Source of the DNA: Catajapyx aquilonaris
Lineage: Eukaryota
Length of the DNA stretch: 64,000 nucleotides
Assembly: GCA_000934665.2 (NCBI GenBank)
Contig: KZ537976.1
Location: forward strand, 124,001 to 188,000
Reading direction: 5' to 3'
Numbering within the stretch: the stretch's first letter is position 1; every line of letters starts with the position of its first letter. Positions 8,868 to 39,939 of the stretch are shown here, one piece after another. A program made the position numbers and the translations under genes. The notes beneath the pieces were generated by a model that was given only the letters and a program-made list of their open reading frames with translations, searched no databases and was not told the DNA's origin.

Positions 8868-11800
8868 TCAGAAATTCTCAGAGTGGTGCTGGAATATGGC
8901 ACCCTGTTCCCTGTTGAGAGCATTGCACGCCTCGTCCACTCCTCTGGTCATTGGTGGAGGACCGCAGCTGAAGACTCCAATGCGATTCACCTACAGGTAA
9001 AAAAAAAGACGAAGTAGTTCACACAAGTCTACTTAACAAATAAACTCAATATACTAACCCCTGGATGGATGAGCTTGAGAGACATGAGGAAACTGTCGAA
9101 ATTCGGTCGTCCGAAATGCGTGACTGAGCGCAGGCCCGTGAACAGAGATCGGTTGGACACTTTCTGGAAGTGTCTCTCGCACACGTACTGTTTGGAGAGT
9201 TTGGAAAATTTGCATAGATAAGAGCAATCGTGGCCATTTCAGGAGTGGACCTGGGCCTCTCAGGTTTCTAACTAACTGGACTGTACACTCACCAGCATGA
9301 CTGTTCGGAGGTCGAATTTGTGGTAGAATTGAGTCACAAAGATGTGCACGGACACAATCCGCTCCCGGTCGTTGCTTTCCACTTCACGGATTATGTCCAC
9401 CAGCCACTCGAAATGCTTCTGGGTTCTAGTCACCCACAAAAAGTACACCTGAAATTGTACGGCTGTCATTAATCTGGAATGACACATTGGTAATACAAGG
9501 TGACGTACCTTTTTGAACGGTGCGGACACCTGATTACGAGTCCGAAAAACAATGTCCTTGAGGATTGAAGCAAATGGGGTGACCCCGATGCCTCCTCCGA
9601 CCAGTACTGCTACCTCGAACTTGTACCAGTCCTGATGCCCCTCTCCGTAAGGTCCGTCCAGATGTATCTTGGGCAAAGGTCCGTCCCGATGCACGCTGGC
9701 GTCGTAAATGCGTCGCAGGTTGGACGTCCATGGTCCGACTGCCCTGATGTGCAAGGTCAAATGCGGTTCGTTCGGGGCAGAGGACAATGTGAAAGGATGG
9801 TACTCGTGTCCACTCATGCCCAGACAGGCGATTCGTACCCACTGGCCCGACTTGTACTCGAAATTTCCCGGCCTCTTGAACTTCAGGAGAGTCACCCCTG
9901 GAAAAGAGAAGTGGATCGGGTGTTCAAAAATGTTTTTTAAAAATCATAGTCTTTAGATTCGGGTTGTGGAAGCCGGAAAAACTCACTGGAAGGTAGCAGC
10001 TCAGCTTTGATGACCTGAATCTCGACCTTTTTCCGACTGATGCTGACCAATCGGTCGAGCGTAAAGAGGACGCAGGGACCCAGGAAAAAGTAGTGGAAAA
10101 ACGGTTCTTGCACCAATCGTCCGCTTCCGTGCAAAATCATCAGGAGGTAGAACACAGGGTACAGATTGTGAGTGACCCAGAACCAGTTGTACAGGTGCCG
10201 ACGGGAGTACTGGGTTGCGAAAGCGTATATAAGTCCACATACGCTGACCAGAAGGATCCCGGTGAAGCCAGTGAGGGTATTGAAGCACCAGTACTGGAAT
10301 TTGGGAATCTCGTGGGACCTGGGAAGAAAGAAAAAAAAATGTCTTGTTACTCGAGAATTACAGCAGGGAATCCTCAGGAAAATCCTTCCTTCAGAATTAC
10401 TGGAAATAGGATTTTACTCTCCTCCCAAGCTCCCCTTCCACCACTTCCAGTTCCTCCCCGATAGATTTGCTCAATAGCACAAAAAGCTTCTTTTCCACGT
10501 CGATTCCATATCGGACCCCGAGTGTCCTCAGAGCCCACCGAGTGACAATTTCAAGCTTGGAGTGTCACTCTTTCAATGGAATCTTTTATTCTCAAGAAAG
10601 CGGATTTTTTTTCTTCTTCTCCTTCTTCCCTCTTTTCCTCCACTCCGAAGAGTAATTAAATTTCTTCGTTGTCACACATGAACGAGCTGGGTTTAATTTC
10701 CGGAGAGAACTTACGCGTGGTAGAAGTTTCTGAAGAGACAGGTCAGGTCGGTCGCAGTCTGCGTTGAGATGTGGTAGAAGTTGATGGCGTGCCCGATGGT
10801 GTGGATCACTGCCAAAAGTAATGCAGCAAATTACACATTGCGATGTATGCACCGGTGTTGTTACTACCGTTGCTTGCTAATGCAAAACAGTAAATAATAC
10901 ACCTGAAAATGAGAGGTTTGCTCTAATTTTAAGGGTGTCTTTTGCAGCGTGCCCGTCAGGCTTTAATTATTCCATGTTCCTATCTGCAGGGTAAGAGGCA
11001 TAATTTATAAATGCGCACCTGACTTTGTTTCATTATTCAGCTATGCATTTGAAATATATCTGAGAGCGAAGAACCGGAGATGTGGTGCCGCCTCTTTCAT
11101 GCCATTCCTTGCACGACTGCTGGAACCGCTTTAAATTTTACAACTAAAAATGATGTAAACCTTTCAGTAATTTGCTTCTGACACTTAACCAGCAGGATTG
11201 TTGGTGAATTTGTGCAAAAGTGAAACTTCTCTTGTATACCTGTACCTCCCAATTGTTGAAGGTATCAACATATTGATCGGTATACACTGTATTGTTTAAT
11301 TATGTTTTGCACACATTCGGTTTTTGCAAAAATGTCAAACTACTGTAACAACTGTCAAACACAGATTTTCAAAACTTGTCAACACGACATAAACCTAGTT
11401 TCAATTTTTTGCACCAAATGTTAGCAACAACTCAACTTTCAACATTTAAAATCCACACATTCACTGCGAAAAACTTTAAATCCATCTTTTTGAGAGAGAA
11501 AAAAAGTCGACTTCTATTTTTCGCCTGAAAAAGCCAGGACTTTCGTCCAATCATGCACTAATTGCCACCATTTCTTACGCCAGCCGGAAAAAAAAGTTGG
11601 ACCACACTATTGTGCGAAATAAATCGAGTTGCAACACTATAATCTCTCTCTCTCTCCCCCTTTTCTCTCCTTGGTCGGGAGGAATCCTTTTGTTGAGGAG
11701 ACAAAAGTGTGCCGTCTCCGTGACAAAAGAATCGGACAGCGAGAGAATGGAAAAGGTGTGACTATACTGGAAAGGGTTAAAGTTGAGCCGACTGGGAAGA

Positions 11801-14800
11801 GTCTTTTTCCACCACCTTCAAAATGGAGAATGTCAATCTGCTTCCATGACGTCGAAAATAAAGAGTGGAAAAAGTGAAGTTACAAGACGGTATAGTCAGC
11901 ATTTCCTTGCACTAGTATGGGCAAAACTGCTTATAAGGATTGCTCAAAAAAATGAAGTCTTTTCATCCGATGCACAATATTATAGGGAGCTTTTTGGAGT
12001 TGGGTTGAAAGTGTGCTGGGGGGATAACAGCTCTTCCTTGTTCTTGGCTCCAAAGCCCGCAGGAGAGGGTATTCGCGACATGGAATTCCTTTCCCTGACT
12101 GTTCTCAGAATGGAAAGGTGAAAATTAAGGCCAGTCGGGAGCAAAGCAGAGGGTTTTATTCGGCGTGATGACCGATTGCTTGGCCTGGCCTAATTGTCGG
12201 ACTCAGTTTGCATAACAGACCAGTTTCCACAATTAAACCTAAGAAACTGCTAAAAATAAGCAGCACATTGCCAACAAATATCCCTAGGAATGAGCTATGC
12301 AGCATTAATATTATTATAAGATTTTGAAGCCGCGCACATACGAATTTTTGAGACCATTTTGTTAATTTATATGTCGCCGAAATGCAGTTAATAGAGTACA
12401 AAGTCATCATAATGTGTATGAATATGCAGTGTTACACAGGAAAATATGAAGGCGGAAGGAAATTAAATATTTAAATGAGAAGCTTTGAAATGGTAATTTT
12501 TGCCTTTTTCCCCCCACTTACCGCAGCTCGCTGATTTAATTTTGAAAATTCCCTTTGTCTCATAACACACTGAGATGATTGGCAGCAAACTGAGTACGAC
12601 AAGCAGATGTGTAGGCTTCAAGTTTATGCACATACAACCAACGATTCCGACACAACCTTTAGACAGCTCTTAATCACGTTTTAAAAGTGCATACAGAATG
12701 TTAGAATGAAATGCAAGAATTACCTGAGAAAAACAGGGCCCAGAATGCGATGTACTTGTGCATGGAGACGGCTGAATCGAATGGTATGAATCGGTTGAGG
12801 AATGTCTCCCTGAGGTGAGTGATGACATTTCTGCACATGGTGACCAGCAGAGACGAGTAGGTGAACATCATGGCCGAGGCTGCCCCTCGGGTCACGGTCA
12901 CTCCATATCCGGCGATTCTTCTCAGGCCACCATGCTCTCGCTCAACCGAATAATCTGCAGGGCAATGAATTTTGCAAATCAAGTTGCTATTCTCACCTCC
13001 CGCAAAAAAAATAGAAGCCACTTACAATAGGCCCTCTCGGCGAAAATGGCCAGAAGGACTAAAGTGTACAGGATGGTCCAGAATATTTGCAGGCTGTAGT
13101 TGTCCAAGTACTCTCGAAGATCTCCCAGGAATTTGTACTTGCTCTGGCTAGGAACTTTATTCTGCACCCTGACCTGAACTTCAGGTTCGGGAACTGCCTT
13201 TTGTTCCTCTGCGTCTGGCTTTGGCTCGCCTAGGCCAAGGTCTTCCCTGGTCCTGAAGTCGAACGTGGATTAATTAATTAATTTTAGTCCTTCACTCATA
13301 TTCACGAGTAAAGATTGGCACGAAATTTCGCATCACTTTAAAAAATTAAAGAATTTACTATTTTGAATTTCTTTTCTGCATTATAGGCACAATAGGGTTT
13401 ATTAAGACATGTCGTACGTACTCGTAGATCTCATAAAGCGTTGTCCTGGCTCGGTCGAAGAAGGTTCGTCGTCCTCCTTCTTTCCGTTGCCTGCTCTGCA
13501 AGTCGTGTGGTACGTTAGATCCGGTGAAGCTGAGGTCTGCTGAACCGATAGTGTCCTTGTAACGTGTCATTAACCGCTGGAAGTCGCTCAGGGTCACGTA
13601 TGCCTGCGGATAATATACGCACGTAATTTAAGACTTGGTTGGATCATGATCGTTAAAGACCTGGTTAAACGTACCGCTGACGAGGATTCTCCCAGGGAGC
13701 TCAGCATTGACGTCACAACAGCATCCACTTCCTTTTGATCCAGTGTATCGCTCGCTGATTCCATCAAGGACCTGCCACATAATCATGTTCACAATAAAGC
13801 GTTTCTGTGCTCGCAAATTATATGTCCCGAGTAATTTAATTAAACCAGGTCCATTTGACTATTGGTCATATTATGAACTCGACATGACTAACCTGATCAT
13901 TTCTGCCAATTCGTTCCTGGTTAGCTTTCCAGTTCGGTTGATGTCGTACATTTCGAACATTAGCTTCGCCTTGTCCTCAGCCGTACCCTTTGAGAATATG
14001 ACCAGCATGTCCAGGAATTCCCGGAATGAGATGTACCCATTCTTGTCCTTATCCACAAGGTTGAACATCTGGAAATTAATGTGTCCAGTGTTAACTTTGT
14101 CCCGTTTTCCACGAGCCAGTTTACATGACACCAAGAAAAAGGCAAAAAGCGATGTAAATATAGACCGCTTCATCCTTGCCTTACAAGCAAGAATATAAAC
14201 TGAAGCGCTTCTAGTTTACTGGGCTTGATAATAATTTACTCGCCTCCAAACTTGTGTTTAAATCGATTCATTTTAAGGCGGATTATTGTTTCAATGCTCT
14301 TTCAAACTCCATTGCAAACTGGCTCGTATTGAGTGAATTGAGCTTACTTTTTGGATGAAAATGGATTCAGTGGGCATCGACAAGGAGTCCGCAAACTCTG
14401 CCTTGGTCAGCTCGGTCTTGATGACCTCGTTGGATTCCGCCGTGTCAGTCGCCAGTATTTCTTCCTCGTTGTGCGCAATGTTGAACGCCTGTGCGAACAC
14501 AACCCTGAAGAATCTCTCCAGCCTCTTCTGCCTGTGCTTCTTGACCACTGCTGAAGCCAAGGCGGCCTTCAGACTCTGAGACACCGCCACTCTCTCTGTT
14601 CCTAATCCGGATAGGAACTCGTCCAATCCTTTAACAAAACCCTCTCTCAGGAAGGATGAGTCAAACTTCAGAACCAGGTCGTACTCCTTGGGAACCTTCA
14701 GCACCAGATGAATTTCATCAGTGACCATGATCATCTCCGACGGCGACTCTCCAGGGGTCATCCGTAGAACCTCGATGCTTCGGAGCAGCCCACCGGTTTG

Positions 14801-17800
14801 ACTTCTGACTTCCAGGCATCTCTTTCGCTTCATCATGATGATGACCACTGGCCGGTAACGGTCCTTTCTGCTGACCCACTCCTTGGCCGCGTATGGGATG
14901 ACCTGCTCGTCCGGATGAAGGTTCCTGAAGGACATCTTGATCTTCTTCTCGAGCATTGTGGCCTCCTCTTTGCTCTTCCTTTTTTTCTTAATGGTGGTTA
15001 GAACCAAGGGCAGCATGATGGTCCCTAAAAAGGATGCAACAGTGCATAATTTCTCAACATAGTTACATATAAGGTGTATGCCCTATTCAGTGACTACATA
15101 TGATTTTTTTACGAGCGTAACCGAGTGCGCACCTACACTCGCGCAAGTCCATTGTTCCGATAACAGCGTTGCCACAGTGCTCAGGGGCGAAATTCACACC
15201 GGTAACCTATAAGGTTCGTTCCAGAGCCTTGGCAACGTCGCAAAAGTCGGCCATACGGTTACCCGCTCAAGCGTAGTGTTGGAAACAATTTACGCGAATT
15301 GTGTTGCGCACTCGGTTGCGCCGATAAAAAAATTCATCTTATTACTAACACTGTGATGCGCAGTGCAAGGATGGCCAAGAATTTTACCAGCGAGGGTGAG
15401 TCCTACGAAAAAAAAGGTCAGGATGTAAGGGATCTCTGACCCTGTGAAGTAGTCGTAAGTTCTCCGTGGGCTGCAATTTTCTACAGGCGCCTCTGCAGAA
15501 CCCAGTTGAGGGAAATGGAAGCAACTCACATCCCTGCAATTGAAGTGGATGGATATTACAGCAAACATTTGTTCATGGTGCTCTGACATGCTTGTTTACC
15601 AGTGCAAAATGCTAGATTGTGTGTAAGACTCGAGAAACTTACCCCACGATATTTCCGGTAATAAAATCTAACTGGCTGCATTGGCTTATCCGCAACGGGG
15701 GGTCCATGTTCTGGCAATTATCGTGGAGGTCACTTACTGTAAAGAAAACGAGCTAATTTTTTGTCATCATTTAAGTATTGAATCAATCTTACGATTTGTT
15801 GGTGCCAGGAATGGATCTGGCTGGATGTCGTTGAAGTCCATTCGCGTAACGGACATTATGACGTCGTAGATGGTCAGACGCTCTATTCTGCTTATTTCCT
15901 CGTTGGTGAAAAGACCGTTGTGCGTATTTCTATACCAGAACCGATCACCGTCTCTGATCCTCTGAAACTGGTCTATGATGATTTTTCGGAAGACCTGACC
16001 TGGTCGATACGTCGTTTCCAGTAGGCCTCCCACCCACAAGTCAATGTTGTCGGTCTTGCCGTCATAAGCACTCGACAGGTTCCTCAGCACCTGAAATGAC
16101 AAAGAAGCCAGCAGTTTGACCTTTGTACTCTTTGCCCTCATAAACTCACTTCATCTGGAACTAGACTCCCGGTCACTCTCTTGAAGTCCTCTGGTATCAA
16201 CGAATTGACTCTTTCGAGACCAAAAGACTCTCGGACTGTGTTGTAGTCCTGCAGACCGTGGTCTCTGGCTCGTTGTATGTTGATCGCCATCAGGTCTCGC
16301 CTGGAGAATTCCAGTGGTCCAAACACATTCCCTGGTAGGGTATCAAAGCGGTCAAGGCCATACAAGGTGCCACAGTATCACTACGAACCTCTCAAGTCCT
16401 CCACTATGACATTGTCTTCATTCTCCGCTATCTGAGTGGCCATTCCCATCAGGAGTCTGTCGATGTCCACTATCTCCTCTCCCTGTCCGTCCACCTTAGC
16501 CAAAAGCGGATCCTGCGGCCTCCAGTATATGTTGCATGTCCTGATTCCAGCGCTGCCGTGTCCGTTAGCAGGGGCTTCTCCAGGGTCAATGGTGTACGGC
16601 ATCGACTTGCATCCTTCTCGTCCGTACTTGCGTATGTACACTCCGGGAGGCACAAGGGTATGTCCGAACCTCATGGCCGCCGATTGAAACATCTGCTCGA
16701 TTTGCGGGTCCACCGATGGGTTGTAACCTGCTCAGAGAGACTTTGTCAGAGGAAATTGTACTAGGATATGCTGGCCTATATTACCTTTATAATCAGGCAA
16801 ATACTCCCCGATCCATCGAGGGAGCCAGGTGTTGAAGGTGATATGCTGCTGGGTTGCTATCACCCACTTTCGGGCCTCTAAGAAGACGCGTTCTCCGGAC
16901 CAATCTGGATGTTCATCTCGGAGGAATGATGCTATGTGGTTGTGCCAGCGGAACCACATGACGCCGAATGTTAGCAAAAATGCGTTTTCGTTGCCTCTAG
17001 GGTTGCCCAGCACTATAGACGGCAACGACATGTGTTACGGCGGATGTTACTACGGACTCCGTAACAAAACAACTTACTCCAGAATCGGTTTACAGGATGG
17101 ATGTGATGCACCTTCTCGAAGAACGAATGGTTGACCGGAGGAGGTGGATTGGCCATTGGAAGTCGAACCAGATTTTGCTCCGGGAACAGTCCGCCGTGAG
17201 AGTAGGCCAGCAAACCGTCTTTGTCTACTGTACCGTTCCTGTACGTCCTCAGAGTATCCGACCATGCCTTTGACGTGCCATACATCAACCCACCGTCCAT
17301 CCAGGGAGTGATTTCGTTCAGCTACGAATAAACGGTTAGTTTGTTCCGTGAGAAATATTAGTCACAAAATATGCCAGACCTGTTGCCTGGGATTGTTGGG
17401 TGAGAATCCAGTCCTCATGTCGTATCGGGTGCGCAGAAGGGGCATTTGGGTGTGGTGCGGATCTTCTCTGAAACGATGACCTTCCAGAATATCGATGTTG
17501 AAGTATTCAGGTGGACATCCGGCACCTTGGGCGTCCAGTATTTCTTCCACTGCCTGTTGACCTGCCATGTCACAACACTGCGTTACATTATTTTGTCTCC
17601 CAGAAATTGATATGCACGGATTGCATGCAATATATTGCGGCTTATTATCTCACCAAAGAAAACCAGGAGAGCTGTCTTCCCCGTCTTGGACCTGTTTCCT
17701 ATGTCTCCGGCCATCATCATATCACTCAGTGTGAATGGATTAGGCCTGGTGTCAATTGGCTCGTACACTCCGTCCTTGTAATTGGCTGGCAGACGTCTAA

Positions 17801-19059
17801 GCAGAGCAGTGTCTGAAATTGGTCAGTGTCGAAAAAAAAAAAATCGAAATTCAGTGGGACATGCACATTCCTATTGTATACCCGTTGTTACCGTTACTAT
17901 TTCTGGTGAAAATGATCTGGAATCTTTGGGAATCTTTTACTGACCGTACAACGTAGAGACTTTTATATTCATTAGTCTAGTTGATAGGAATAAGTGACAG
18001 CTTTAAACATTAATTTTAATACAGTCTGCTATCCATCAGAATATCCAGTGATTGTTTCATGCATTAGAACTGGCGTGATTAATGCATAATCCAAATATAA
18101 TTTTTGGATTATGCATTGAGGATAAGCTTAGGGCAATCAACAATGATTGTTTACTATTTTTCAGTTAATACAATATCCCCGCCTAAAACATGTCCTTCTG
18201 GCAACGCATAAATGCGAGGAAAAATTTGGCACCACTTCAGAGCGGTGTGCAAACATCTGCATAGTAAAATCGCACCTTTGTGAATTTGTGCAATTTCATA
18301 AAAAAAACGACAGCACACAATCTGAAAACCTTAATTAACAGATTTAAATTGACCGCAAAGTCGTGGTTTCACTGTACTGAGAGAAAGTTTTCCCTATCGC
18401 TAAGTGTCAGAAAAAATGTTTCTCCAACTCCTAGATGATCCAGAAAGAGCTTTCTGATAGTGGTACGCGGTACAACAGGAAAACGGACCTGATAATGATA
18501 ATCTTTGCCGGCAAAAGCAGACTATGGACGCCCCTTTTTTATGCAGGGTATGCTGCTAAGTCAAGTAAAATAATGGTCTACAAGAAGTACAATGGTTCAA
18601 ACAGAAGGGAAAGGATGGTATAAGACTGCAGAATTACTTCCACTTTTGACACTCTGACACAATCGAGATAAACCTACCGACTGATCCTAGCTCCGGATGA
18701 GCCGGATTGTTGTACCATCCATCGAACCCTTCGTACTCTGTGAATCGGTACTGGTAATCCGGGCATCCTACCAGGTTGCCTCTGGTGCATCCTTTTAGCA
18801 GCCATCTCAGAAGGCCTCTCTTTCCTCTGGGGTCGTTTCCAATACCAGCCCAATCGCGCGCAGGTGGTTTCTCACCTGTGTGCAGACAGTGCTGTTACAT
18901 AGGCCTGCATAAATATAATGGCCAGATTTATGATTTTATACCTCTGACTGGACGTTGAGGCGGTGGAGTCGGTGATGGTGGCGGTGGAGGAGGAGGTTCC
19001 TGCACCCAAACCAAGTGGGCAGTGCACAGAAGCACACCCAGTGACAGTAGCAGCCTCAT
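8868..19059 (-). CDS. Duox: Dual oxidase (signal peptide, peroxidase-homology domain, TM, EF-hands, ferric-reductase TM, FAD/NADPH domains), about 1666 aa, 23 exons
   Basis: Exons (minus strand, 5'->3'): 18942-19059, 18678-18875, 17654-17812, 17380-17561, 17078-17321, 16785-17012, 16389-16727, 16150-16331, 15793-16090, 15643-15736, 15388-15533, 14348-15024, 13893-14068, 13675-13771, 13422-13603, 13026-13252, 12724-12954, 10715-10808, 9987-10318, 9509-9897, 9293-9448, 9059-9187, 8868-8990. Total 5001 nt, in frame. Motifs: [42 protein letters not shown]-hand [49 protein letters not shown]. Confidence 0.96.
15100..15337. mobile_element. Degenerate MITE-like inverted-repeat element in a Duox intron
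   Basis: Left arm ATGATTTTTTTACGAGCGTAACCGAGTGCGCA is an imperfect reverse complement of right arm TGCGCACTCGGTTGCGCCGATAAAAAAATTCAT. Confidence 0.6.
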
Positions 19060-19772
19060 GCTTCTGGGCACATCAGACCAGAAGTACCATCCCGCAGTCG
19101 ATTGCTCGGTGCACAGACCGATTTGCTATTTTCGACACTTCTTGCCGGTGGTGGCCTATCAGCGGAAACGATGGTTTCCAGCCGTTGGTTGCTCGAAAAG
19201 AAAACCGCAGGCAGGAAAAGGGCGGCTGTGGCATATGTAGCCTGGTTTTCCTCCATGTGAATAAGGAAGACAAATGGAATCGGGGGAAATATTATTAGCC
19301 TGCAATACTTTGAAGAGAAAATTGTGGCCCCTAAGACACACTAGGATGAATCATGGTGCCTTTGCTCGTATAAATGGGCAATGTTTCAGAGAGAAAAAGA
19401 AGGGGCAAGTTTCTGCTTCGTTATCAACAACTACACCATCCTGTAAAAGTACAGTACATTTGGTTTACGTTTCATCCTTGCATGATGCAACCCACAATGC
19501 ACTGTGATATTTTTGTAGTATTGTCACAATCATGACAAGTGAGTGTGATCTTTCCAGAAGTGGGTGTAACTTTTTTTCCCCCTTCTTTGCCTTCAGTTGG
19601 ACTTGGGCAGTGTCGGCCACTTCCAGGGGTGTATATCAGGAGAGTGAACTTCCCTTCTGTGGTTTTGAGACAGGAAAACGGTGGTGGCTACGAGTAAATG
19701 TGATATTTTCCCCCCTCTCTATTAGGATGTGCGGGTGAGGCAGTTGAACTAGCGTGTACCGACCGCCTAGAG
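19060..19772. promoter_or_regulatory. Probable bidirectional promoter plus 5' UTRs of Duox and DuoxA
   Basis: Only 713 bp separate the divergent start codons (19059 minus, 19773 plus). Transcription start sites are not determinable from sequence. Confidence 0.7.
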
Positions 19773-21830
19773 ATGTCTTGGTTCGGTTTTCAGCGTAGCG
19801 AAGGGTACCCGACCCAATATGGCTCGAACAAGACCCCGGTCACAGTCGATGTCCTCATCGCAGGGTTCATATGCTCTTTCATCATCATCGCCATCAGCTC
19901 ATGCGTCCTGCTCTCTGGGTACCGCGGAAAGCAGGTACAGTACACATGCTTGGAAGGGTATATGACTTTGGAGTCTTAATTGGGCTGGTTCACATTGCAG
20001 GTGGTGTGGGTGTCGATTCGGATCTTCACCATACTGTTCCTGGGAGCCGTCATTATGGGTAATGTTAAATGGGTTCTGCTTATGTGTAATTAATTTTGCT
20101 AATTGGTATTGTACGCAGTGGACAATTTTGGGCAAAGCTGGGAGGTAGCAGAAGTGTCAGTTAATGACTTGCTGTACAAGGCTGGAAGCAACGAGACAAT
20201 CAATGCCACTGTCTCCATGAAGTTTGGCTTCCGTGCATTGAACATCACCCTGAAAGGTATGGTACCGGTACTTCTAATGGTACATGCAGTACATGAGCCA
20301 ACTCTTGCAGCTCACCCTGATCCACCAGGTGAGAAGATTGACTTCAACGAGCGCTTCTGGTGGACATGGGATCAAGGCAGGAATGGGTTTGGACCATACG
20401 GTGAGACTTATCTTTATTACCTATTTTGTGGGGCATGCTTACTTTAATTGTGGAAATATTTGCAGCTGGACAATACAACCAGGACTACAGGGCAGCGCAG
20501 AGGAAGGGCCTTCCATTGCCCATACTGTGGGTTGCGGAGTACTTGACATTTGATGGTGATGGCATCAGGTGGGGCAGGCACTACCGGTTAGCAGGCTGGT
20601 TTGCCCACATTGCTCAGTGGGTCGCCTTCCCTCTCTGGATCCTGACGACAATCCTGTTCTTCTCCGTCATCCAGTACGGAGCCTACTGCCTGACCATGAC
20701 CGGGGTGTGCATGGTCATTGCCAACCTCATATGGATGTCGGTGAGGAACTCAATGGAGTTGGCCATACCTCTCGAGAGCCTGGGGAACAGGAGCCACTCT
20801 GCAGAAGACATGCATGAGGAAGTGTTGAGGACCCACTTTGGAGGAAACTTCTGGCTCAACTTGATTGTTGGTGAGGGTGCTCATGTAGTGGCTCGCAGAT
20901 CTGTTTGAGCTTCATGTTCTTGTCGCTTGCAGGGATCTTATGCATCGTGCTGGGAGTGGTCGTCATCATCCTGAACCAATATTGCTCCAACGAGCTGGCA
21001 GACTTCTTTGGCATAGATCCACTGGCTGACTTTGAAGAGTACCACTACAGTATGTATCAGCTGATCAGGAATCAAAACAATTAGGAGTTATCACATAAAC
21101 CATAACAATGCATGAACTATGCTCTAGAGCTCAAATTAGGTTCCACATGCCAAAATATAACTACGTTTATAATATCAATGAATCAACATTCCTACACTGG
21201 TCAAGTCTAATGCATAATTGAATCACTTTTTATAAGAAGGGAACAAGTCCAACGTAAGGTTTTTGGACTTGTTCCCTTCTTATAAAAAGTGATTCAATTA
21301 TGTCAGTGTAACTGCAATGCAAGGTGTAGTGAATCAGCGTACCATCTTGTGCAGGTCCAGATGAACTGCAGAACAAACAAAACAAAAGGGGTGCTAAGAA
21401 AACAAGTGGAAATTATGAGGGGTTGAATGTCCAGAATGATGTGGAATTGGCAGTAGTTGGTGAAGATGGGGTGCCAGTACCAATACAACCGCAGCCACCA
21501 GAACCTCAGGTTGTATGCACACACATTCCATAAGACATGGCCACAGCTGACGCCCTTCCTCTTCATTAGGATATTGTTGTCTTCAAGAGGCGGACAACAA
21601 GTCGCTTTGGACATAACAAGATCCGTAAGCCCATAGCGCCACCGAGGCTGCGCCCAGGACTGCAGGTGCCTGACGAAGATCCTTTGTATGAAAACTTTCA
21701 AGGAGCCGCTGCGTAAGTTGCTATCAGAATGGCGGAGCTGACTGTTTGCTAAGTGTCACTACATTTCAGGGCTGATGATCAAGAAGTGCTGTATGGAAAC
21801 CTACAGCCACCTCCACGACCTCCTCGTTAG
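19773..21830 (+). CDS. DuoxA: Dual oxidase maturation factor (DUOXA / NIP / moladietz family), about 442 aa, 9 exons
   Basis: Exons 19773-19934, 20001-20058, 20119-20256, 20311-20400, 20466-20870, 20933-21049, 21355-21509, 21570-21712, 21770-21830 (TAG), with consistent phases. Family motifs: NITLK, IDFNERFWW, AQRKGLPLPILWVAEYLT, RWGRHYRLAGWF, HFGGNFWLNL, plus five hydrophobic segments. The last three exons (cytoplasmic tail) are less certain than the core. Confidence 0.92.
21213..21302. repeat. Perfect 40-bp inverted repeat with a 10-nt loop in DuoxA intron 6
   Basis: CATAATTGAATCACTTTTTATAAGAAGGGAACAAGTCCAA (21213-21252) and its exact reverse complement (21263-21302). Confidence 0.9.
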
Positions 21831-22066: not shown

Positions 22067-22367
22067 TGTGAACCCACTTTAACTGTGTTTTACCTATTGC
22101 AGTTGGCGTATTTCCCAAAGTGTACGACCCACCTTGTATTGCCTTCGTCTCCTGTGTGCAATGTCNGTTATGATACATCAAAAAAAGTCTTACAATAGGT
22201 TACAATATTATGAAACGGACCGATCGGCCATGGGCCCCCCCCGAAAAAATTTCCTGCCTACGCCACTGTGTGAACCCACTTTAACTGTGTTTTACCTATT
22301 GCAGTTGGCGTATTTCCCAAAGTGTACGACCCACCTTGTATTGCCTTCGTCTCCTGTGTGCAATGTC
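22067..22367. repeat. Identical 99-bp direct duplication flanking a single N and a transposon-like end
   Basis: 22067-22165 equals 22269-22367, with an N at 22166. The intervening sequence ends in CCTACGCCACTG, which resembles a hAT-type terminal repeat (CAGTGGCGTAGG on the other strand). Confidence 0.8.
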
Positions 22368-24248
22368 TTGCAGTGTACACTCTTTTGATCATGTGTTTTT
22401 CAATTAACAATCTCTAACTCATCCAACCCTGTGTAATAAAGCTAACATCGTGTTTAATTCAATTACCAGCATGTACGCCATACGTTACATTATTCCTTGC
22501 TTCCTTTCCAAGATCACTAAAGTTTTCTCTCTACATATGGAAACAACACTGCTACCATCATCAGCGTGATCAGCAAACCACGTGGGGCTGCAAAGCATCA
22601 AATGCAAGATTAACCAATGTCCCACATTATGAAGGCAAGTCATTCTTCATGTTTCGATCCCTAAGATATGAAAGCAATTAATTGATGAGCTGCGCAGTGA
22701 TAGATCTACCAACACTTGTTGGTTGAAATGTTACTTCTGCAGTAATTGTTAAGTTTATTTAAGCCAAGCGAGTTGCAAATTTATGCTTGGCTTATGTGCT
22801 ACTAGAAGCACCAGTTTTGTAATGAACGATTCGTACACGCCGCATGGCGGAGCTTTTCCACTACATGAAGCATACATTTCCCAGCATAAGGAAAATGTGA
22901 AGCTAATGTCAATTGATCATCGTTAAAACTGCGGCACTTGCAACCTTCTTATGTGATTGGTTCAGAAAAATTGGGTTACGCTTCACTTCGATGCCATAAA
23001 ATTACTCGAGGGCAACAATATTTCCAAGCAATGCGGAAACCATATAGCGTGTAAAAGCAACCTCTCAAAATAGAGAACTGCATTTGTAGTATAATGTTCA
23101 CCTGGTCAACACCTTATCATGTCGATTCCGGTTAGCAAGTAGTGACGTGTGTGAGAAAAAGAAAAATGGTACAAGTGAATCAGATGCACTTTTATTATAT
23201 TCTCCTGTATTGTCTGCAACTCCACATTTTCTCCAAAAATAGCTCAAGCGACACAGGTTCCAAGCCTTTCACATAATGAAGCAGTCAAATAATAATCAAA
23301 AAAGCAGGCAGTCAGGCTTACCCATGTGGAAATGTAATAAGTAATGAATGAGGTACCAGTAAAATCATGTTCAGTCGCAGTGGAACTTTTAATGCAGGCT
23401 GTATTTTCTTCCAACGGTCCAATTGAAGTACATTGACCGATATAAATCCCTTCAGTTCTCCCACTTTAGCATCATGATTAAGTTACTGAGTTTTACATGA
23501 TGTGAGTTTGTGGAATGCTTGTAGTAGACATGATCTTAAGGAGTGGGAGCCAATCAGGTATCGCCACAAAAAGAATAAGTTTGAAATACAACAGTCTCCC
23601 TGACACCAAGATAAATTACAGCTAGCCATTGCTCAGTATTTGGCACATTTTAAAACGCACTTGTTATTTTATTCCACCTGTGAAATGCAACATCTATAGC
23701 ACATTGCCTATTAATTCGGGTTGAGGTGAGATGGAAGCGAACCTTGAGGAACCAACCCAAAAATTCCTTTTCATAATGTTGCAGAAAGTGTGTCCTGTCC
23801 GCAAAAAATGAAACACCATTGCCATTGTTACAAGTTTTTTTTTCTCTCTCTTTTCTCTGTCCTCTTATTTTACTTCGCCATGATTGCAAATGTACATCGA
23901 TCCAAGAGTCAGTCAAGTTGTGAAGATACACTGGGACCACAACAATCACCAAGATCACATTTGTACATTTAAAAAACAAAGGTGGGAGGGAGGAACAAAT
24001 GATAAAAGTCCTATCTGCCGCATCGCCACAGAAATGAACCAAAATCGACTTTTGTTCATAAAGGAACAAATTAAAAAAAAAAAAGGAAACTACCTAGCAG
24101 TACAAAAAGCGTACAAAACACTAATAATTATTACAATAATTATAATAAAGGAACAAAAAATTCGGGAGAAACCTGCAACCACTCTCTGCAACATTGCAAT
24201 GTTCTCTCGCACTCACCTCCCCCCCCCCCCCCCAACAAACAACCAAAA

Positions 24249-24741: not shown

Positions 24742-27700
24742 TCACGAGCTGACCGAGGGCAGGCGGAACTCCCTGCGTATGTAGAAGAGGATGTAGGCCT
24801 TGCACTTGGCCACAGCCGACGCCTCCGTGGGTTTGACTGTGCTGTCGTTGAAGTTGAACCACTGGCCGTCGTTGATGGCATACGCTGTGTAGTGTCCCGA
24901 GGCAGCCCTGGAAAAAAGTACAGCAGCATCAGTACGACCTGTACAGGTGAGTGCAAGAAAGCCAGTTTCAATTATAATAATGCCGATACATCGTAATAAG
25001 GTGACAACTCCATCAGACTACAAAAGTGTGCTTGCACGTAAGGAAAAGTCCACCAGAAAATGTGTTAATATTTAAAAAGAAGCACCCTGGCCTTCGTTAC
25101 TTGTGAATGCTAGCATGCCATAGCCGCTGCTCCAAGAGTTTCCTTGCAACTGAAACTTGCGGAACTATAACCAATATTTAATGAGAGACGAGCCCAGGTA
25201 CATGTCAGCTTCCCACAAACACGAAGGTTATTCCACCACAAAGGGATGTCAAGGGGGCAATGGGGAGGGTAGCGACATGCTTCTGGCAGGCCAGGCAAAG
25301 TCTTAGATTACAAGTATATTTGGCAGAATTTCAAGAATCGCGTCTTTTCAATTTGCATAGCGAAGTGTGCACAGAGGAAGTCAGCGATGAGTACAACTGA
25401 CCCTGATCCGTGATGGACGATGACGGCAGCGAGGTCGTACAGGTTGGTCCCCGTCCCAGAGCGCCTTGTTTCGTGCAAGTTGCTAAGGATGTACTTGGAC
25501 ATGTCAAGGGCTGTGAGTGGGAACTGGATGTAGGCATCCACCTTCGTCCGGAAGTAGTTGTTCCATCGGAAGCGCTTGAGGTGCAGGCACAGCACGTTTG
25601 GCAAGCGCCGAATCCAGAACCTCTTGGTGGAGCGGCGCTTGCTCTTGCAGTTGTTGCAATAGTACAGCTCCGTCTCCGCAAGCTCCTCAATCTCTATGAA
25701 CGAGGTCAGGCAGTCTGCCAGGGTGGAAGAGAAAAGAGCGGAGAGACTGGTTATCTCAACATGTGGTTTCCAACCGGCAATCCCTGCAAAAATGCTGAAT
25801 CGCTCAGCAAAACACTTTAACACCTACAATGGCACGGTGCATTTGCAGTACTCAGAAATCTGTAACAGTAACACAACGAGCCCGGCGCAATCGAGATAAA
25901 CTGTAAAAGCACGGCTCTTTCTTCGTCAAATGGTTGCCTCGTCTCATTGACCATTTACTAGTCAATCACCATGGCTTATTCACCCCATTTACATGCCAAT
26001 GCAACCCAGTTGACTTCACAGCTGTGCCGCAAGGTCCCCCCAATCATAGCCTATTTAGGGAGACCAATGGCAGACACTCGTCACAACAATCAGGTCTTTC
26101 TTGCATTGCCCTTTTTTTGAATGGCATGTTAGGCTGACACTACTGCGCACGTTAAAGGTTCATGCAACGTTATTCAGGCGGAGGTTAATGCACAATCCTC
26201 TCTAGGCCATGGTCAAGGGCGACACCCAAGGCCAAGAGCCAGCTGACTCCCACGCATAAGGCCTTCCAACGCAGTCTCGGCTGCCCACTAAATCCACATG
26301 AAAGCGTCTGCATTTTACATTCAGTTTATAGTTTGTTCAATGGAAGAATGCAACCATGTCACTCTCTGTATCAATGAATGACTCGCAGGTTGCCTTGCGA
26401 CTAATTCCGATTGATACAGAAAGTGACGCCATGGCATTCTTTCACTGAACTACAATGTCCATTGCAGGCAAAACTACCGTTCATATTAGGCCAACTGTTT
26501 GTTTTTTTGGGATGGTGAAGTGCTTTTTCGCAACCAAGTAGTCATATTTGCAACTCTGACAATGCAATCAGTTTTAATAATAAATTTACAACCATTTCAT
26601 GCTGGCTTCAGGTACAATATATAAAGGATAATAGAAATGTCCTCCGTCTCCGTTAGTCATGTACGTTGAACTGATAAGCTTGTCTATAGTACTAATTGAA
26701 GAAGTGCTATCTACCGCCAACGTGGCAAAGTTGATCCATGCAATTGCACAGGCAGCTTGCAAAACCCAACCGTATATTTGCCTAGATTCCAATGTCAATA
26801 TGTGCAAAGTTACAGCTGCCGATGTCGCCGATGGGGTATTCCAAACCCAAGCTGTCTATTTCCCATTAATTCTTCTTACGTCCAAGTCAACAATGCACAT
26901 GGGTCACAACACACTACATCCATAGGCCAGAGGTCGTACAACCACTTGGCCCCGCCACTCACCCGAAAGCGTGCAGGCAGGCGCTACGTCCTCCCCACTT
27001 CCTTCCTTAGACTTCTTTCCGCCCCCATTGCCACTCCCTCCTGACCCTGACCCGCTCCCGTTGGACACCCCAGACCCCACAAACTTCTCCGGTATATCCA
27101 GCGAGAGGTCCAGGAACGGGTCGTGCTTCTTGGACTCCACCCCGCAATGGAGGCAGTGCACTTCGTTCTGCAACGTCCCGCCAAACACGCTGGTAACAAT
27201 GGATGACTTCCCCCTGTGGCCCAGAGATATGTAGGGCGAGTCACGGAGAGTCAAGTCGGGAAGAAGGTGCAAGAGCTCCGTGTGGAGACGATCCAGCATG
27301 TAGCGGAGGAACTCGTGCGCATCCTGCTGCTGGTATCCTCGGAAACGGGGCACAACCTTCCATATGACGTTGAAGAGCGACTCTGGGGAGATGGCCCCCT
27401 TGCCGTTGGTCCCCGAGAGAGTCCCCTGATTCAGGCCGATCAAGATCTTACGCAGCTCTTCGGCCATCATGGCCTCGCTCATGTCCCTCATCCGCGACGA
27501 GTACACCCTCTTCCCGTTGGCCGGCTTAAGCTGGTCCAAGGAAGGAAGCTGCTTGAAGTAACAGCAGAACTCCTGGATGTTGCTGAGCGACTGCAGGACC
27601 GCATTCATGAAGCACGTGTTGCCCAGGTTCCGAAGCCCGACCACACGCTTCTCAGTGCGTGACTGCGGTTCAAGCTTTATGTCGCGCCGCCGCTTCATCC

Positions 27701-30204
27701 CGCTCCTGCCGCGGTTTTCGATCCCAGGGCAGCTGTCCTCTGAACCGGCTCGCTTTCTGACCCGCCGTGGCCTCAGGTTGCGAGCCATGCCCTCCCAGCT
27801 CGGACCCTCTTCGGGCGGCGCCTCTTTACTGGTCTCCTTCTCTGCCTCCTCCGAGATCCCATTTGTGACTCTGCCTGCCTGAAGGACTTCCCTGGCACGT
27901 TGAAGGTCCTCTGTGTCATTGGCAACAAACTCGTCGCATATGTAGCAGTATGCGCACAGGTTCTCGCAGTCCATGCACACGCTGTGATTCCCCCCTTCCT
28001 GCTCCCAGTGCGCTTTCGCATGTCCGTTCACGTAGCGACCACAGTTCACCTCCCCGCAGTGCATGCATATCCACGGGCTCTGTGGCGTCTTGCAGGCTGT
28101 GAACAGACAGAAAAATGCAAGGTCAATGATGCATGACTCACTGCAAAGTGCATTCATTGCAGTCAGGGGGAATGCCCACTTACGTACTGCATGGTGTAAC
28201 AACTAAAGGGTCATGCTGGACCTGATCCAAAGAAGGGTTGGAGCCACTGCTGGCTGGCAATGATTTTGCTCTGTGTCCAAATGCAATTATTTACTACCAA
28301 GAATTACTTTAAATTTATCTGGATTCAGGCCTGCAAATTTTCACTTGTGCAAGAGGCCTCCCGAAGCGCTATGATAATTACAACACCAGATGCCTTGTTG
28401 TTAGGCAAAAGCAATTTGCAGCGAAAAGCTCCACAAATAGAATCTCCTCTCCTGTAATTTTCCCTACAGGCTGCCCTTGACGTAAAACATCTCGTTAAGT
28501 TTCGGTGAATGCTGGAGTTGATTGTCTCTCGTTACGGACGTGGCACCCAGATGTGAGAGGTCTGCACGTGGCAGCAAGTACACCTTTGCGACGCTTCATT
28601 ACGTGGCTGATTCTTCTTGAAATGTGCCCCCATGGCGCCCAACAAACCAGCTAATTATTCTGATATTCTAAGCAGTAAACATCAGCAGTTACTAATGAGC
28701 GGCATCCCATTGATATACTAACGTTCATATACTCTGAGGGGGAAAGACGCATGATAATGATGTCTGGATGACATTATTTTTATTACGTACACCTAATAAC
28801 TATATATATATTTTTAAATATCCCGCACCAAGACAGGTGAATTATCACCAATCCAGACAATATCGTTCTGTAGTTTATTTCATTAGTGAAGCAGCACGGA
28901 GGTCATCAGCATTTAGTCGCTGTCGCTGGAAACAGCATTGCCAATCCTTGACTGGCCACTGACTCCAGGTTGGCAGTACTGTTGCAGTGACAGTCAGGGT
29001 GCCAACTGAATTTTAGTGCCTGCATTGGCAATATTGTCGCAGGGTGCCAACTGAATTTTACATTTTACTGACTCCAGGTTGGCAATAGCGACAGTGACCA
29101 ACAGGGGGGAAGGGGGGGAGAAGTGGGGGGGAGGTGCCATTCATTTACTCTGAGAGGAAGAAGCATGTCTTGATGACAGCAATGATTACGCGAATGATTA
29201 TTATTTGTGTGTGCATTCATTATTGCATTGATTAATAACTAATTAATTTCTGAAGCATCCCACACCAAGACAGGCGAATCATCGCCAATCCTAAAGTCGT
29301 TCTACAAGTTGATTTCATTCGTTAGTGAAGCATCATCAGGACATCAGTAATCACTGGACGCAGCATTGCCAACCCTTCACTGTCCAAGTGACTCGAGGTT
29401 GGCAATACTGCCGCAGTGACAGTCAGGATGCCAACTGAATTTAGTGACTGCATTCTGCATTGGCAATGCTGTCACAGGGTGCCAACAGAGATGCCCAGTG
29501 ACTCTGGGTTGGCAATAGTGTCACAGGGACCATCAGGCTGCCAACTGACTTCTGTCAGCTCGTGACTGGCATTGGCAATACTGCCCTAGTGACAGTCAGG
29601 GTGCCAACAGAGTTATCGAGTGGACCTGTCCATGTCCCCCCCAATGCAAATGACAGACCACTTCTCAACAATGGCCTCCCCCCAACAATGCTCGTATGCA
29701 GATTCCCACCCCCGAATCCTCTTTTTCCCACCCACCCTACCACCCACTCATCCCACCACCCACCTCTCTCCCCCACCCCCTCCCTCTCCTCCTCCCAAGG
29801 CTACATGCTCCAGTATGGATTTTCCTCCATCCCTCCCTCCCCCCTCCCAAACCCCTGCACATCTCTCCCATCCCCAACAGATGTCCACAACACTTGTTTA
29901 TTTTTTTTTCTCTCTCTCCATTGTGACGTAACATATCTACTGCAGCGTCCCGACACCAAAAAAAAAGTGGGTGGGTAGGTGGAGCAGACGGGCCGCAACC
30001 TTGAAAAGGGTCGATTCTCCCCNNNNNNNNNNNNNNNNNNNCCCCCCCCCCCCCCATAATATTCAAAGTAAAAAAAAAAAGTCCAGCCAACTTTTCCAGT
30101 GGGAGGGTCAGCATTGACCTGACCTTACCTGCGCACTGCCATTGTGGTCCTCCCCGTACGATCTGCAAGGACCGCACGCTCCCCTTCAGATGCGGGCATT
30201 CCAT
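24742..30204 (-). CDS. USP3: Ubiquitin carboxyl-terminal hydrolase 3 (ZnF-UBP + USP catalytic domain), about 562 aa, 4 exons
   Basis: Exons 30129-30204, 26963-28096, 25402-25714 and 24742-24907 (TGA). The N-terminus MECPHL matches vertebrate USP3. Also present: Zn[28 protein letters not shown], Cys box [23 protein letters not shown], His box HHGSGAASGHY, and WFNFND. Confidence 0.94.
26335..26450. repeat. Imperfect hairpin (probable MITE relic) in USP3 intron 2
   Basis: GTTCAATGGAAGAATG...GTCACTCTCTGTATCAAT pairs with ATTGATACAGAAAGTGAC...CATTCTTTCACTGAAC. Confidence 0.6.
28731..29620. repeat. Diverged ~420-bp tandem duplication containing an array of TGCCAA...TTGGCA units, in USP3 intron 1
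   Basis: Copies start near 28731 and 29147 (e.g. ATCCCGCACCAAGACAGGTGAATTATCACCAATCC vs ATCCCACACCAAGACAGGCGAATCATCGCCAATCC). CAGGGTGCCAAC and GTTGGCAATAC-like motifs recur throughout. Confidence 0.8.
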
Positions 30205-30817
30205 ATCTGTTTACAAGTAGTGTTGTCCTTTCTCCCACCCAACAATGAACCCCCACACCCAGGGTGTCTTTTTTGTTACATATATATCCAGGAGCCGAGA
30301 ACCTTTCACATGTCAGCTCGGCCCGACCCGGCCCCACTTTTTGAAGCCCAGAAAAAGGGTGAATGCATGAGAGACCGGATCACTTCCCCCCCTCCCCCCT
30401 CTCAACTATACAGTCCGGATTGCGGGTCAACCTCCGCCCGAATAAAGTAGTCCTCGCACTTCTCTGTTGGGAACACTGCAACAAGAGAAGAGAGAAAGAG
30501 AGAGAGAGAGAGGGAGAGAGAGAGAGAGAGAGGGGCGGAGGGATACACGACATGCAACTGCAGTCACAGTTGCCAGACCAAGAAGGCTGCAGACTCCGGG
30601 ACCAATTTTGGTTCCGGATCCCCCCGATAGATGTCGCACTTAGCCGCTGTGCTACATCCAGCTGCTTTTTATTATTATTATCCAGGATGTTTCGAATGTA
30701 GCTGCTGTGCTTTGTTCTAGCACCACCAGCCACCAAGTTCTTTAGTTCTAGTCCTGGTTCGGTTCTTGTGTGTTCCAAGAGAAGGGCGTGTGTGAATGCT
30801 GGTTGACCGGGCCCGGT
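30205..30817. promoter_or_regulatory. Probable bidirectional promoter plus 5' UTRs of USP3 and the MTMR10-like gene
   Basis: 613 bp between divergent start codons (30204 minus, 30818 plus). Contains a (GA)n tract. Confidence 0.65.
30486..30532. repeat. Imperfect (GA)n microsatellite
   Basis: Visible run of AGAGAG... within the USP3/MTMR intergenic region. Confidence 0.85.
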
Positions 30818-33800
30818 ATGACGCACAGCTTCAAGAGCTATGTGGATCTGGACGAGCACGAGCTGTCCGAACTGGACTTCCCACCGGAGGACCAGGTCCA
30901 GTTCGAACCGAGGTTGCTGCCAGGTAAATGGGCAACGCAAAGGGCTGTTCTTATGGAATAGAACGCTGTCAGCTCATGTTGGGTTATTAGAACCAAACTG
31001 AAGCGTACTTGGACAATTAGAACGTGTTTAAGTTACGTACTAGTTGCTACCGGGTAATGGGACGCAAGAGTGCGCTGTTCTTGTAATGGAACACTACGAC
31101 AGCTCATGTCGTGTTGGTAGTAAACTCACAGCGTACTGGCCACATTTAAATTAAAAAGTACATTACATAGTACGCAGAATGTCCACTGCATACTACAATG
31201 TCGAGTTACTTGCTAGAAGTAAAGGCCCGTACACACAGGCCGTCGACGGTTTTGGTTTTTGGTCGCGTTGACGCCGCGGACCAATCATGACTCATGTAAA
31301 CAAGTGCAACCCATTGTTTAGAGCTTGTTTACATGGGTCATGATTGGTCTGCGGCGTCAACGCAACCAAAAACCAAAACCGTCGACGGCCTGTGTGTATG
31401 GGCCTTAAAGGTGCGTTTACATGTGAGTGATTTGATACCGCGATGTCATTGCCGAGTAACCCAAGTCACGAGTATTGTTTTCAGAGGTGAACATCGATTG
31501 TTACTTTCATCTCAAACAATATTGGTTACTCAGGTTACTCAGTGCACCGCTCGGCAATGACATCGAGCAATAAAATCGCTCACATGGAAACGCACCTTTA
31601 ACTCACAGCGTACTTGGGTGATTAGAACACACAGCATTTAATATGCCCATACATTGTTCGCAGCAAGTCTGCTGTACTCGAAAACGTCAAGCAACTTGTT
31701 CCGCCTGATTGGGTCGAAACACATGCACATGTTGGTAATTAATTATTTAATTGAAGTTAATTTCATGTAGTGGAAAAAGTAGCTCATGTTGTGTTGGAAG
31801 TAAACTCACAGCATACTGACTGCATTTGCTGTATTTGATGGCACATAAGACGCACGGGCATATAAGACGCACCCTCATTTCAGCAAATCATGTTCAGGAA
31901 AAAAATGCTTTTAGCATATTTTTGCATATAAGACACAGGACGATTTTTTGAGTAATTTTTGGGGGAAAATAGTGCATCTTACAAGCCGTCAAATGCGGCA
32001 AATAAATAAGTACATTCTCTTACATACGTAACAAGTCCCCTGCACACTGAAATGTCAAGGACCACATGCATCATCTACTAATTTATGTTAATTTATCTAC
32101 AGTGGAAAAAGTATTGTAAAGTTATACTTTTTTCTACAGGTGAGGTGGTGGTTGCGGAAGCGAAGAATGTGCTCAAGTTTGCGTCGCTCAGCGATAAGAA
32201 GCAAGGGGTGTCCGGTTCCTTGTACGTGAGCAATTTCCGGGTGGCTTTCATCACCACGGAGGACCTGGGCAGAGGCGAAGTCAGTCGGGGACAGCAGAAC
32301 CGGGTGCTGGGGGAGAACGACATTTGCTTGCTCAATATAGATCAGGTGTACCAGGTGGTTGGAGATAAGAAGAAGAAGCTGAATCCGGGAGTTAGTGTTT
32401 TTAAGAAGGTCAAGGAGGTTCAGATTATGTGTAAGGTAAGGAAGATATTAATGTAACCTTACAGAATATGGTACTAAATAAGCGTTTTGTGTTTGACAGA
32501 ACTTTCGAGTGCACTCGTTCAGCTTCAAGTTCTCGCCGATGGATGATGGGAGGATATTCACCAATGCTCTGATGCACCATGCCTTTCCGGAGAGACATGA
32601 CCGGATATTCGTGTTTGATTACAGGTTGGAAGATTTAGAGTTGCAGTCATGCATGATGCTAAATTAACGTGTGTTCCAGTGAGCCGCCACCGCCATCCTT
32701 AGGTGGAACACGTCTCTTTTCCTCTGCTTCAGACTGGATGGACGAGCTGGAGAGAACTAAATGCCCTGGTTGGAGATTGTCCAGGGCTAATGAGGCCTTC
32801 CGGTCATTCCCTTAGTAAGTGTTGCTTTTCCAGAATTTTATAGGTTCGCCTTTGTGGACTTTTCATATTTGAATTTTGTAGGGAAGGTGTGCGTGTAACC
32901 TTCCTTGAAGAATAAGATATTCCCTCATAAATTATCTGCAAGTGCTATCTAGAAATTGTAAATAACTTAGTGCAGGAAGTACTCAAGGTTGCAAGTGTTT
33001 ACTGCACACAGGGTAATTCACAGGGATGAATCATTTTTGCCATGTAGGGTTTTAAATAGCACTGTAATAAATGTGAGTAAGTCTTATGGCTGTGGGTTAC
33101 CCTTTATTCATGTGTGCGTTTTTAACCCTTTGATGGCGGAGTTTTTTTGGCCATTTTAGTCTCTTTATGAAAAAGAAATCTAGTAGGAGTAATATTAATG
33201 AAAAACAATATGCTCCAATATTTATCATTTCAACTCGTGGTGGTCCTTTTGAATATAAAATGCCGAAAAAATTCATCTACAGGGTGGTCCAGAAAAAATT
33301 TTAACGTGCAATTAACTTGAAACGTAATTAAATTTATTTAAATTTTTAACGTCACTATAAAATTGTTACTGTGGTTACATAATACTACTAAAACACTGTA
33401 CTTTGAGAAATTACTACGAGTCCAGACGTCGCATGTTGTCAAAAACTTTCAGGTGGGAGGGGGTATGCTTAGCTCCCGCTGGGAGGCGGGAAAACTTATT
33501 AGCATACGCCATGATGGTTGAGCCCCCTTCCACGAGGTGGTAGGAGCAGTTTGAGCCTCAAACTGCGCCATTTTTGTGTAAACTCTAGTGCTCCCCGTTC
33601 AAAAACCAGCAGGACATCATATGATGTCCGTCGCCATCAAAGGGTTAAATATATGCCAGGTGGTGCAAGACGTGCATCTTCCTTTTGCACTTGGGTTTTT
33701 TTTTGCAATTTTCTTTGATATTAATGGAACACCTTAACAATAAATATGATGCCAACACTGCTTGACATATTGCCGATATTGGCGTGACAAATTTTACAGT

Positions 33801-39800: not shown

Positions 39801-39939
39801 TTACCCATTCAATCCTGGAGGTGTGAAGGACCATCGGAAGGCATTCTTTTCCAATTCAATCGAGCTGTTGTTGCAGAATAGCTTTTTGTCAGAACTTTCT
39901 GATTCACAGGCTAGGTTTGTGGATGCGGAAGATTTCTAG
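30818..39939 (+). CDS. MTMR10: Myotubularin-related protein 10/11/12-like pseudophosphatase (GRAM-like, myotubularin and 3-PAP regions), about 688 aa, 10 exons
   Basis: Exons 30818-30923, 32140-32435, 32500-32624, 32680-32814, 34695-34856, 34929-35074, 35717-35866, 35924-36096, 36695-36865, 39337-39939 (TAG), with consistent phases. Motifs: [89 protein letters not shown]. Confidence 0.92.
31223..31405. mobile_element. Palindromic MITE, PIF/Harbinger (Tourist)-like
   Basis: Near-complete fold-back, AGGCCCGTACACACAGGCCGTCGACGGTTTTGG...CCAAAACCGTCGACGGCCTGTGTGTATGGGCCT, flanked by TAA on both sides (31220-31222 and 31406-31408). Confidence 0.85.
31409..31597. mobile_element. Second, unrelated palindromic MITE, PIF/Harbinger-like
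   Basis: Terminal repeats AGGTGCGTTTACATGTGAG and CTCACATGGAAACGCACCT, with inner arms CGATGTCATTGCCGAG / CTCGGCAATGACATCG. Flanked by TAA and TTA. Confidence 0.8.
31827..32000. mobile_element. Degenerate Tc1/mariner (pogo/Tigger-type) MITE
   Basis: TGCTGTATTTGATGGCACATAAGACGCAC vs GTGCATCTTACAAGCCGTCAAATGCGGCA form imperfect TIRs. Internal TATAAGACGCAC repeats are typical of this class. Confidence 0.6.
33126..33644. mobile_element. Non-autonomous piggyBac-like element in MTMR intron 4
   Basis: TTAA-CCCTTTGATGGCG ... CGCCATCAAAGGG-TTAA: perfect 13-bp TIRs with CCC/GGG ends and a TTAA target duplication. No transposase ORF. Confidence 0.85.

Follow-up and report, generated by a model that had tools for sequence, protein, structure and literature searches.

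The window analysed here, a stretch of 64,000 bases of the Catajapyx aquilonaris genome, is part of contig 28 of an assembly of 285.6 Mb. It contains a dual oxidase gene (Duox) on the minus strand, with its ATG at 19059 and its stop codon at 8870-8868, and the gene of a Duox maturation factor (DuoxA) on the plus strand, with its ATG at 19773 and its stop codon at 21828-21830. By direct reading, the two genes diverge and their start codons are separated by a spacer of 713 bases, free of N. With divergent starts less than 1 kb apart, they have the layout of a bidirectional gene pair. The features of the locus are:

8868..19059, minus strand: Duox, a B-type dual oxidase of about 23 coding exons (direct reading, tblastn coverage, Pfam, tree of two exons); product with signal peptide, peroxidase-like domain, transmembrane segment, two EF-hands, six-transmembrane ferric reductase, and FAD and NADPH sites
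9512..9895, minus strand: FAD- and NADPH-binding exon of Duox, with HPFT and Gly-rich motifs intact (reading, Pfam)
14336..15022, minus strand: largest linker exon of Duox, grouped with pancrustacean B-type Duox in its tree (100/99)
16393..16728, minus strand: peroxidase-like domain exon of Duox, used as query; His where human DUOX1 has Ser
19060..19772, no strand: divergent spacer of 713 bases, candidate bidirectional promoter (direct reading)
19369-19375, plus strand: TATA-like word within the spacer, found by eye, without statistics
19539-19725: possible 5' UTR intron of the maturation factor, within the spacer, found by eye, without statistics
19773..21830, plus strand: Duox maturation factor (DuoxA/DuoxMF), probably of B type, about 9 coding exons (reading, tblastn, Pfam; type by eye against Tribolium XP_971705)

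All of these exons were read by eye, and one of the small exons could formally carry a frame error. When three full-length Duox proteins were compared with the window by tblastn, 1473 of 1634, 1430 of 1564 and 1439 of 1620 residues were covered (about 90%), in matches that are collinear from the amino- to the carboxy-terminus; judged by eye against three-frame views, the in-alignment stops sit in hits that bridge introns. Three maturation factors were covered over 320 of 407, 313 of 434 and 325 of 441 residues (72-79%) by the window DuoxA. Pfam searches of separate exons returned An_peroxidase, EF-hands, FAD_binding_8, NAD_binding_6 and DuoxA, the last (PF10204) scoring 144 bits against a curated cut-off of 23.3. 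An amino-terminal peroxidase-like domain, EF-hands and a NOX core, the combination that marks a Duox, are thus present within one gene. In the translations, four haem histidines, the FAD motif, the Gly-rich NADPH motif and two EF loops are intact, the identity of these motifs being established knowledge. Reading, tblastn and Pfam therefore confirm the complete, diverging Duox and DuoxA that the preliminary description had placed here. Both genes look complete, functional-looking and ancient, with activity predicted from their motifs, and in a genome of 286 Mb, a distance of 0.7 kb between the starts of two specific partner genes is unlikely to be due to chance.

The tail of the window DuoxA is proline-rich and contains acidic Tyr-x-Asn motifs. 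Among full-length DuoxA relatives, such motifs are found in 69 of 85 tails and a proline-rich stretch in 58 of 85. Adaptor binding by the Tyr-x-Asn tail is a guess from general motif knowledge. The Duox product has a short poly-proline stretch of its own, after the signal peptide (window 18938-19059, minus strand).

The 66 cuticle-protein matches in the assembly identify the genome as that of an arthropod, as the preliminary description had supposed; the Duox exons group with pancrustaceans. An odorant-receptor search of the assembly gave one weak match (29 bits), which probably indicates a non-insect arthropod and is not proof. Four neighbours were identified by their Pfam domains:

about 1.8-6.5 kb, plus strand: C2-domain gene, which we take to be Syt4
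25311-30210, minus strand: zf-UBP/UCH deubiquitinase
32082-39936, plus strand: myotubularin-related protein
42437-46169, minus strand: ZIP zinc transporter

Just 3' of DuoxA, a directly repeated sequence of about 95 bases was seen by eye (22073-22375); its first copy has an N, and the repeat may be an assembly artefact.

The reference tree, made up of 33 Duox proteins over 1484 columns and chosen from the 64 of a first FastTree run, falls into two clades. The first (A) holds whale, amphioxus, limpet, nematode and fly-type arthropod Duox (100/99). The second (B) holds nine other arthropod Duox (100/100), together with priapulid, annelid, chiton and tunicate proteins (95/97), and with ambulacrarians included it is supported at 88/97. 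A single clade for all arthropod Duox was rejected (p-AU 0.0013), as was a grouping of whale Duox with the B type (p-AU 0.00017), and the whale also joined the fly type in a mixture-model quick tree (SH-aLRT 99); the whale Duox is unusual in its residue composition, and branches in the A clade are long. When all the fragments, which do not overlap, were analysed jointly in the first FastTree run, three of five window exons were placed away from the arthropod B group, and two of these were not within the B clade as a whole. This mixed-fragment tree with its unstable placements was replaced by separate trees for two of the five exons. Both lie in the pancrustacean B group (100/99 and 100/96), one as sister to the hexapods (100/96). 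For each of the five window exons tested, mean identity is higher to arthropod B (0.36-0.77) than to A references (0.25-0.57), and by eye the window Duox matches a Platynereis transcript labelled DuoxB.

A search with the peroxidase exon yielded 74 proteins from 113 candidates, led by entries from stick insect, springtail, damselfly, beetle, termite, locust, barnacle, wasp, tick, scorpion and priapulid. No dipteran name occurs among these 74 proteins, the search being word-indexed and many entries unnamed. Since the maturation-factor tree, which contains no fly-type reference, gave the factor no resolved placement, its probable assignment to type B is based on best hits, which are molluscan, and on its match by eye to Tribolium XP_971705, both of which favour B.

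The window Duox is a member of the Duox B clade and not of Duox A, to which, on the present trees, fly and vertebrate Duox belong. It is highly probable, judging from the sequence comparisons, that the locus is a Duox B/DuoxMF B unit, one of two pairs derived from an ancestral head-to-head unit that was duplicated at or before the base of the bilaterians. The parallel drawn earlier with fly Duox/moladietz and vertebrate DUOX/DUOXA concerned the wrong paralogue, since the trees and AU tests place the window Duox in B. Nor does the proposal hold that this pair was broken up in flies, which appear to be without it: Drosophila has one Duox, according to the available parts of PMC4833078 and of the PMC11721785 files.

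The fly-type pair is located elsewhere in the Catajapyx genome, where a second complete Duox is accompanied by a second multi-exon factor:

Contig 19, 68800-165800, both genes on the same strand: fly-type Duox and factor, in tandem, 45 kb apart

Genes for ABC-2, BTB and ion-channel proteins lie between the two. This Duox shares 73% identity with a Penaeus Duox in the exon tested, an exon of it was treed with the fly type (95/98), and three of three exons show the reverse identity pattern, closer to A than to B references. Its factor resembles moladietz by eye. In Tribolium the A pair has consecutive accessions, and the Drosophila genes Duox and moladietz are not known to be neighbours. The break-up story may fit the A pair instead, which would be adjacent in Tribolium, is in tandem and 45 kb apart here and would be separated in the fly; the arrangement on contig 19 is a possible intermediate.

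Further, divergent copies of both genes are scattered over the assembly. At least eight Duox peroxidase-domain exons were found on seven short contigs, and at least nine extra DuoxA-domain loci on others:

C5623, C2062, C5764 (two), C3471, C4589, C3423, C2148 (pieces L020-L028): derived Duox copies
C1280, C2314, C1527, C3659, C4071, C541, C1582, C4822, C726 (pieces L001, L004-L006, L008, L030-L038): extra DuoxA-domain loci

No contig is common to the nine DuoxA matches and the seven derived Duox contigs. The Gly-rich NADPH motif is absent from all eight NOX ends examined and kept in a ninth, Nox5-like locus. A pancrustacean B-type insertion is common to the window Duox and to four of four aligned derived copies, and it ties these copies to B, against a peroxidase-domain tree in which four derived copies, on long branches, are placed with weak support (85/67) beside the fly type. 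With the insertion trusted over the tree, the window Duox may be the parent of at least eight derived copies without the NADPH motif. Several extra DuoxA loci are nearly intronless and some have long Ser/Pro-rich repeat tails, one open frame having 1242 amino acids. The DuoxA of C1280 looks moladietz-derived by eye, and four other extra loci form one clade (100/99). Beside two of the derived Duox copies, chemosensory-receptor-like genes are located at L023:129-1100 (minus strand; 7tm_7 by Pfam) and L022:8468-9556 (minus strand; by eye).

Linkage of the B pair was surveyed in the six ecdysozoans for which both partners were retrieved, and accessions are consecutive or near in five of the six, a proxy for adjacency that is silent on orientation. 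In these five (Amphibalanus, Priapulus, Ixodes hexagonus, Ornithodoros and Timema tahoe) they are consecutive or within four, and Duox and factor share a scaffold wherever scaffold length is given. In Oratosquilla, the sixth, the genes are on different scaffolds, as they are in the chiton Liolophura; linkage is therefore dispensable. A second Amphibalanus copy has both genes on a shared scaffold, 103 accessions apart, and in the crinoid Anneissia they share a scaffold, 114 apart. In the openly accessible literature searched, no prior description of a linked second arthropod Duox/factor pair was found.

The divergent layout most likely means that one short promoter would supply enzyme and chaperone together. 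The pair might instead be real and ancient, with its adjacency a mere relic, and the two genes served by separate promoters without co-regulation. Such a reading is encouraged by the lost linkage in Oratosquilla and Liolophura, by the loosening of the A pair to 45 kb in Catajapyx itself and by the derived Duox copies, whose contigs (seven of seven) carry no factor match. However, both 5' UTRs and the promoters must fit within 713 bases, and the accession proxy suggests that linkage has been retained in priapulid, ticks, barnacle and stick insect. The human DUOX/DUOXA pairs, head-to-head as had been stated for vertebrates, are <0 and 135 bp apart and count among the most conserved bidirectional pairs in the portion of PMC2871058 at hand. 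Independent promoters are thus considered unlikely, and a shared one is the preferred reading.

It is considered improbable that the fly and vertebrate pair has its orthologue in the window, with the head-to-head layout preserved here and the pair disrupted in flies. The architecture and layout of the window pair are those of the human pairs, and the accessible part of Massari et al. (PMC9421330) groups human DUOX with the window type, which would make the pair the vertebrate orthologue and still not that of the fly. Against this orthology stand the trees and AU tests and the presence on contig 19 of a distinct Duox and factor of fly type, this Duox having the 73% identity to the Penaeus Duox over the exon tested; the fly half is already contradicted. 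An arthropod-specific duplication, or a contig foreign to the animal, as the molluscan rather than arthropod best hits of the factor might suggest, is scarcely credible and, unless references are mislabelled, ruled out by the AU rejection of one arthropod Duox clade, by the nesting of the window exons among pancrustaceans with a pancrustacean-only insertion and by the occurrence of this insertion in derived copies that lie on further contigs. The Duox B/DuoxMF B assignment is retained below.

Part of this picture has been published. As far as the available text of Vullien et al. (PMC11721785) goes, head-to-head Duox/DuoxMF pairs occur in sponges and non-metazoans, a duplication in bilaterians produced A and B, the layout was kept at A, the B genes are apart except in ambulacrarians, and ecdysozoans are off the two-clade pattern. 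The accessible part of the preprint (10.1101/2024.07.25.605162) has B lost in ecdysozoans and vertebrates, and B without the head-to-head layout. The expectation that the layout predates the protostome/deuterostome split is borne out, yet for sponges and non-metazoans it is already in the part of PMC11721785 available, and the antiquity of the arrangement is not a novelty. What is new, modestly, is a B pair that is intact and head-to-head in an arthropod, against the loss in ecdysozoans given in the preprint; the finding amends a published scheme and adds no new system. Those PMC11721785 files that were obtained contain a Tribolium B Duox and factor, so that both Tribolium pairs are present, and interleaved Riftia gene numbers, and for these reasons the figure of Vullien et al. 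may already show part of the B-pair result. In the same set of files, the A/B labels for the factor are inconsistent: SupFile9 and SupTab3 name Platynereis EVm008981 'DuoxMF A', and SupTab4 names it 'Duox MF b'.

A second arthropod Duox has been visible before, in the scorpion (PMC9421330) and in Tribolium (PMC11721785 files), within the parts of these sources obtained. The available portion of Massari et al. divides DUOX into two subclades, with scorpion in both, and places human DUOX in the annelid/arthropod-type subclade, against the present trees and Vullien et al. In the sections at hand, Palmer and Jiggins (PMC4833078) count 1 to 3 Duox per arthropod without classing them, Gandara et al. 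(PMC5372347) do not subdivide Duox, and a 2025 cricket study (PMC12687331) reports arthropod genomes with a single DuoxA and insects with only Nox5 and Duox.

A scheme consistent with these observations can be proposed. An ancestral head-to-head unit would have been duplicated at or before the bilaterian base, giving two pairs, both of which arthropods would ancestrally have kept; here B would have remained head-to-head and A would have loosened. Flies would have retained A only, and vertebrates likewise on present trees. The head-to-head layout could persist in both daughters of the duplication, with the pair that stayed linked varying by lineage. In the Duox family, the factor is required for delivery and activity of Duox, and calcium triggers the output of H2O2. 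The maturation factor, a membrane protein, would bind Duox, take it to the cell surface and stay as a subunit. Calcium on the EF-hands would set off an electron transfer in which NADPH is the donor, FAD and two haems are the carriers and oxygen is the acceptor, with extracellular H2O2 as the product. With all core motifs present, a calcium-dependent H2O2 output is predicted for the window Duox, and a short promoter presumably shared within the 713 bases would drive enzyme and chaperone together.

We tentatively suggest, with more doubt than confidence, that most non-fly arthropods carry a second, unstudied, co-transcribed B module with its own job, and that here it seeded a parallel expansion of at least eight Duox without NADPH site and about eight divergent factors, which may pair with one another in non-catalytic complexes that regulate or anchor the single active B enzyme. 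In that case, what has been found for 'Duox' in beetles, locusts, wasps, ticks and crustaceans would describe only half the system. Shrimp work on a 'Duox2' reportedly exists (PMC11872611). Should the B pair be widespread, knockdown and expression work on arthropod reactive oxygen species (gut immunity, cuticle, wound healing) may miss or confuse a second enzyme.

When the locus is compared with known systems, the pairs DUOX1-DUOXA1 and DUOX2-DUOXA2 of human and mouse (PDB entries 7d3e and 6wxr) are alike in domain order, core motifs, obligate factor and divergent layout of less than 1 kb. Human DUOX is, however, paralogous to the window Duox on present trees and has Ser where the latter has His in the peroxidase-like domain, and human and mouse DUOXA differ from the window factor, with its Pro-rich Tyr-x-Asn tail. 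Drosophila Duox/moladietz (the fly type, 'Type 1' in the accessible part of PMC9421330) belongs to the same family, with its orthologues on contig 19; Drosophila-type Duox is the other paralogue, with 25-57% mean identity to the window exons. The direct orthologues of the window Duox are arthropod entries annotated automatically as 'dual oxidase 2-like', from Tribolium (XP_008200778), Timema, Ischnura, Orchesella, Amphibalanus, ticks and scorpion. Duox B/DuoxMF B of PMC11721785 falls in the same clade, with Platynereis DuoxB and Owenia, Capitella and echinoderm sequences. Duox and factor are alike in both, and the ancestral head-to-head layout is known from sponges and non-metazoans; in that scheme, to the extent available, the B genes are reported apart, whereas the B pair of the window is intact and head-to-head.
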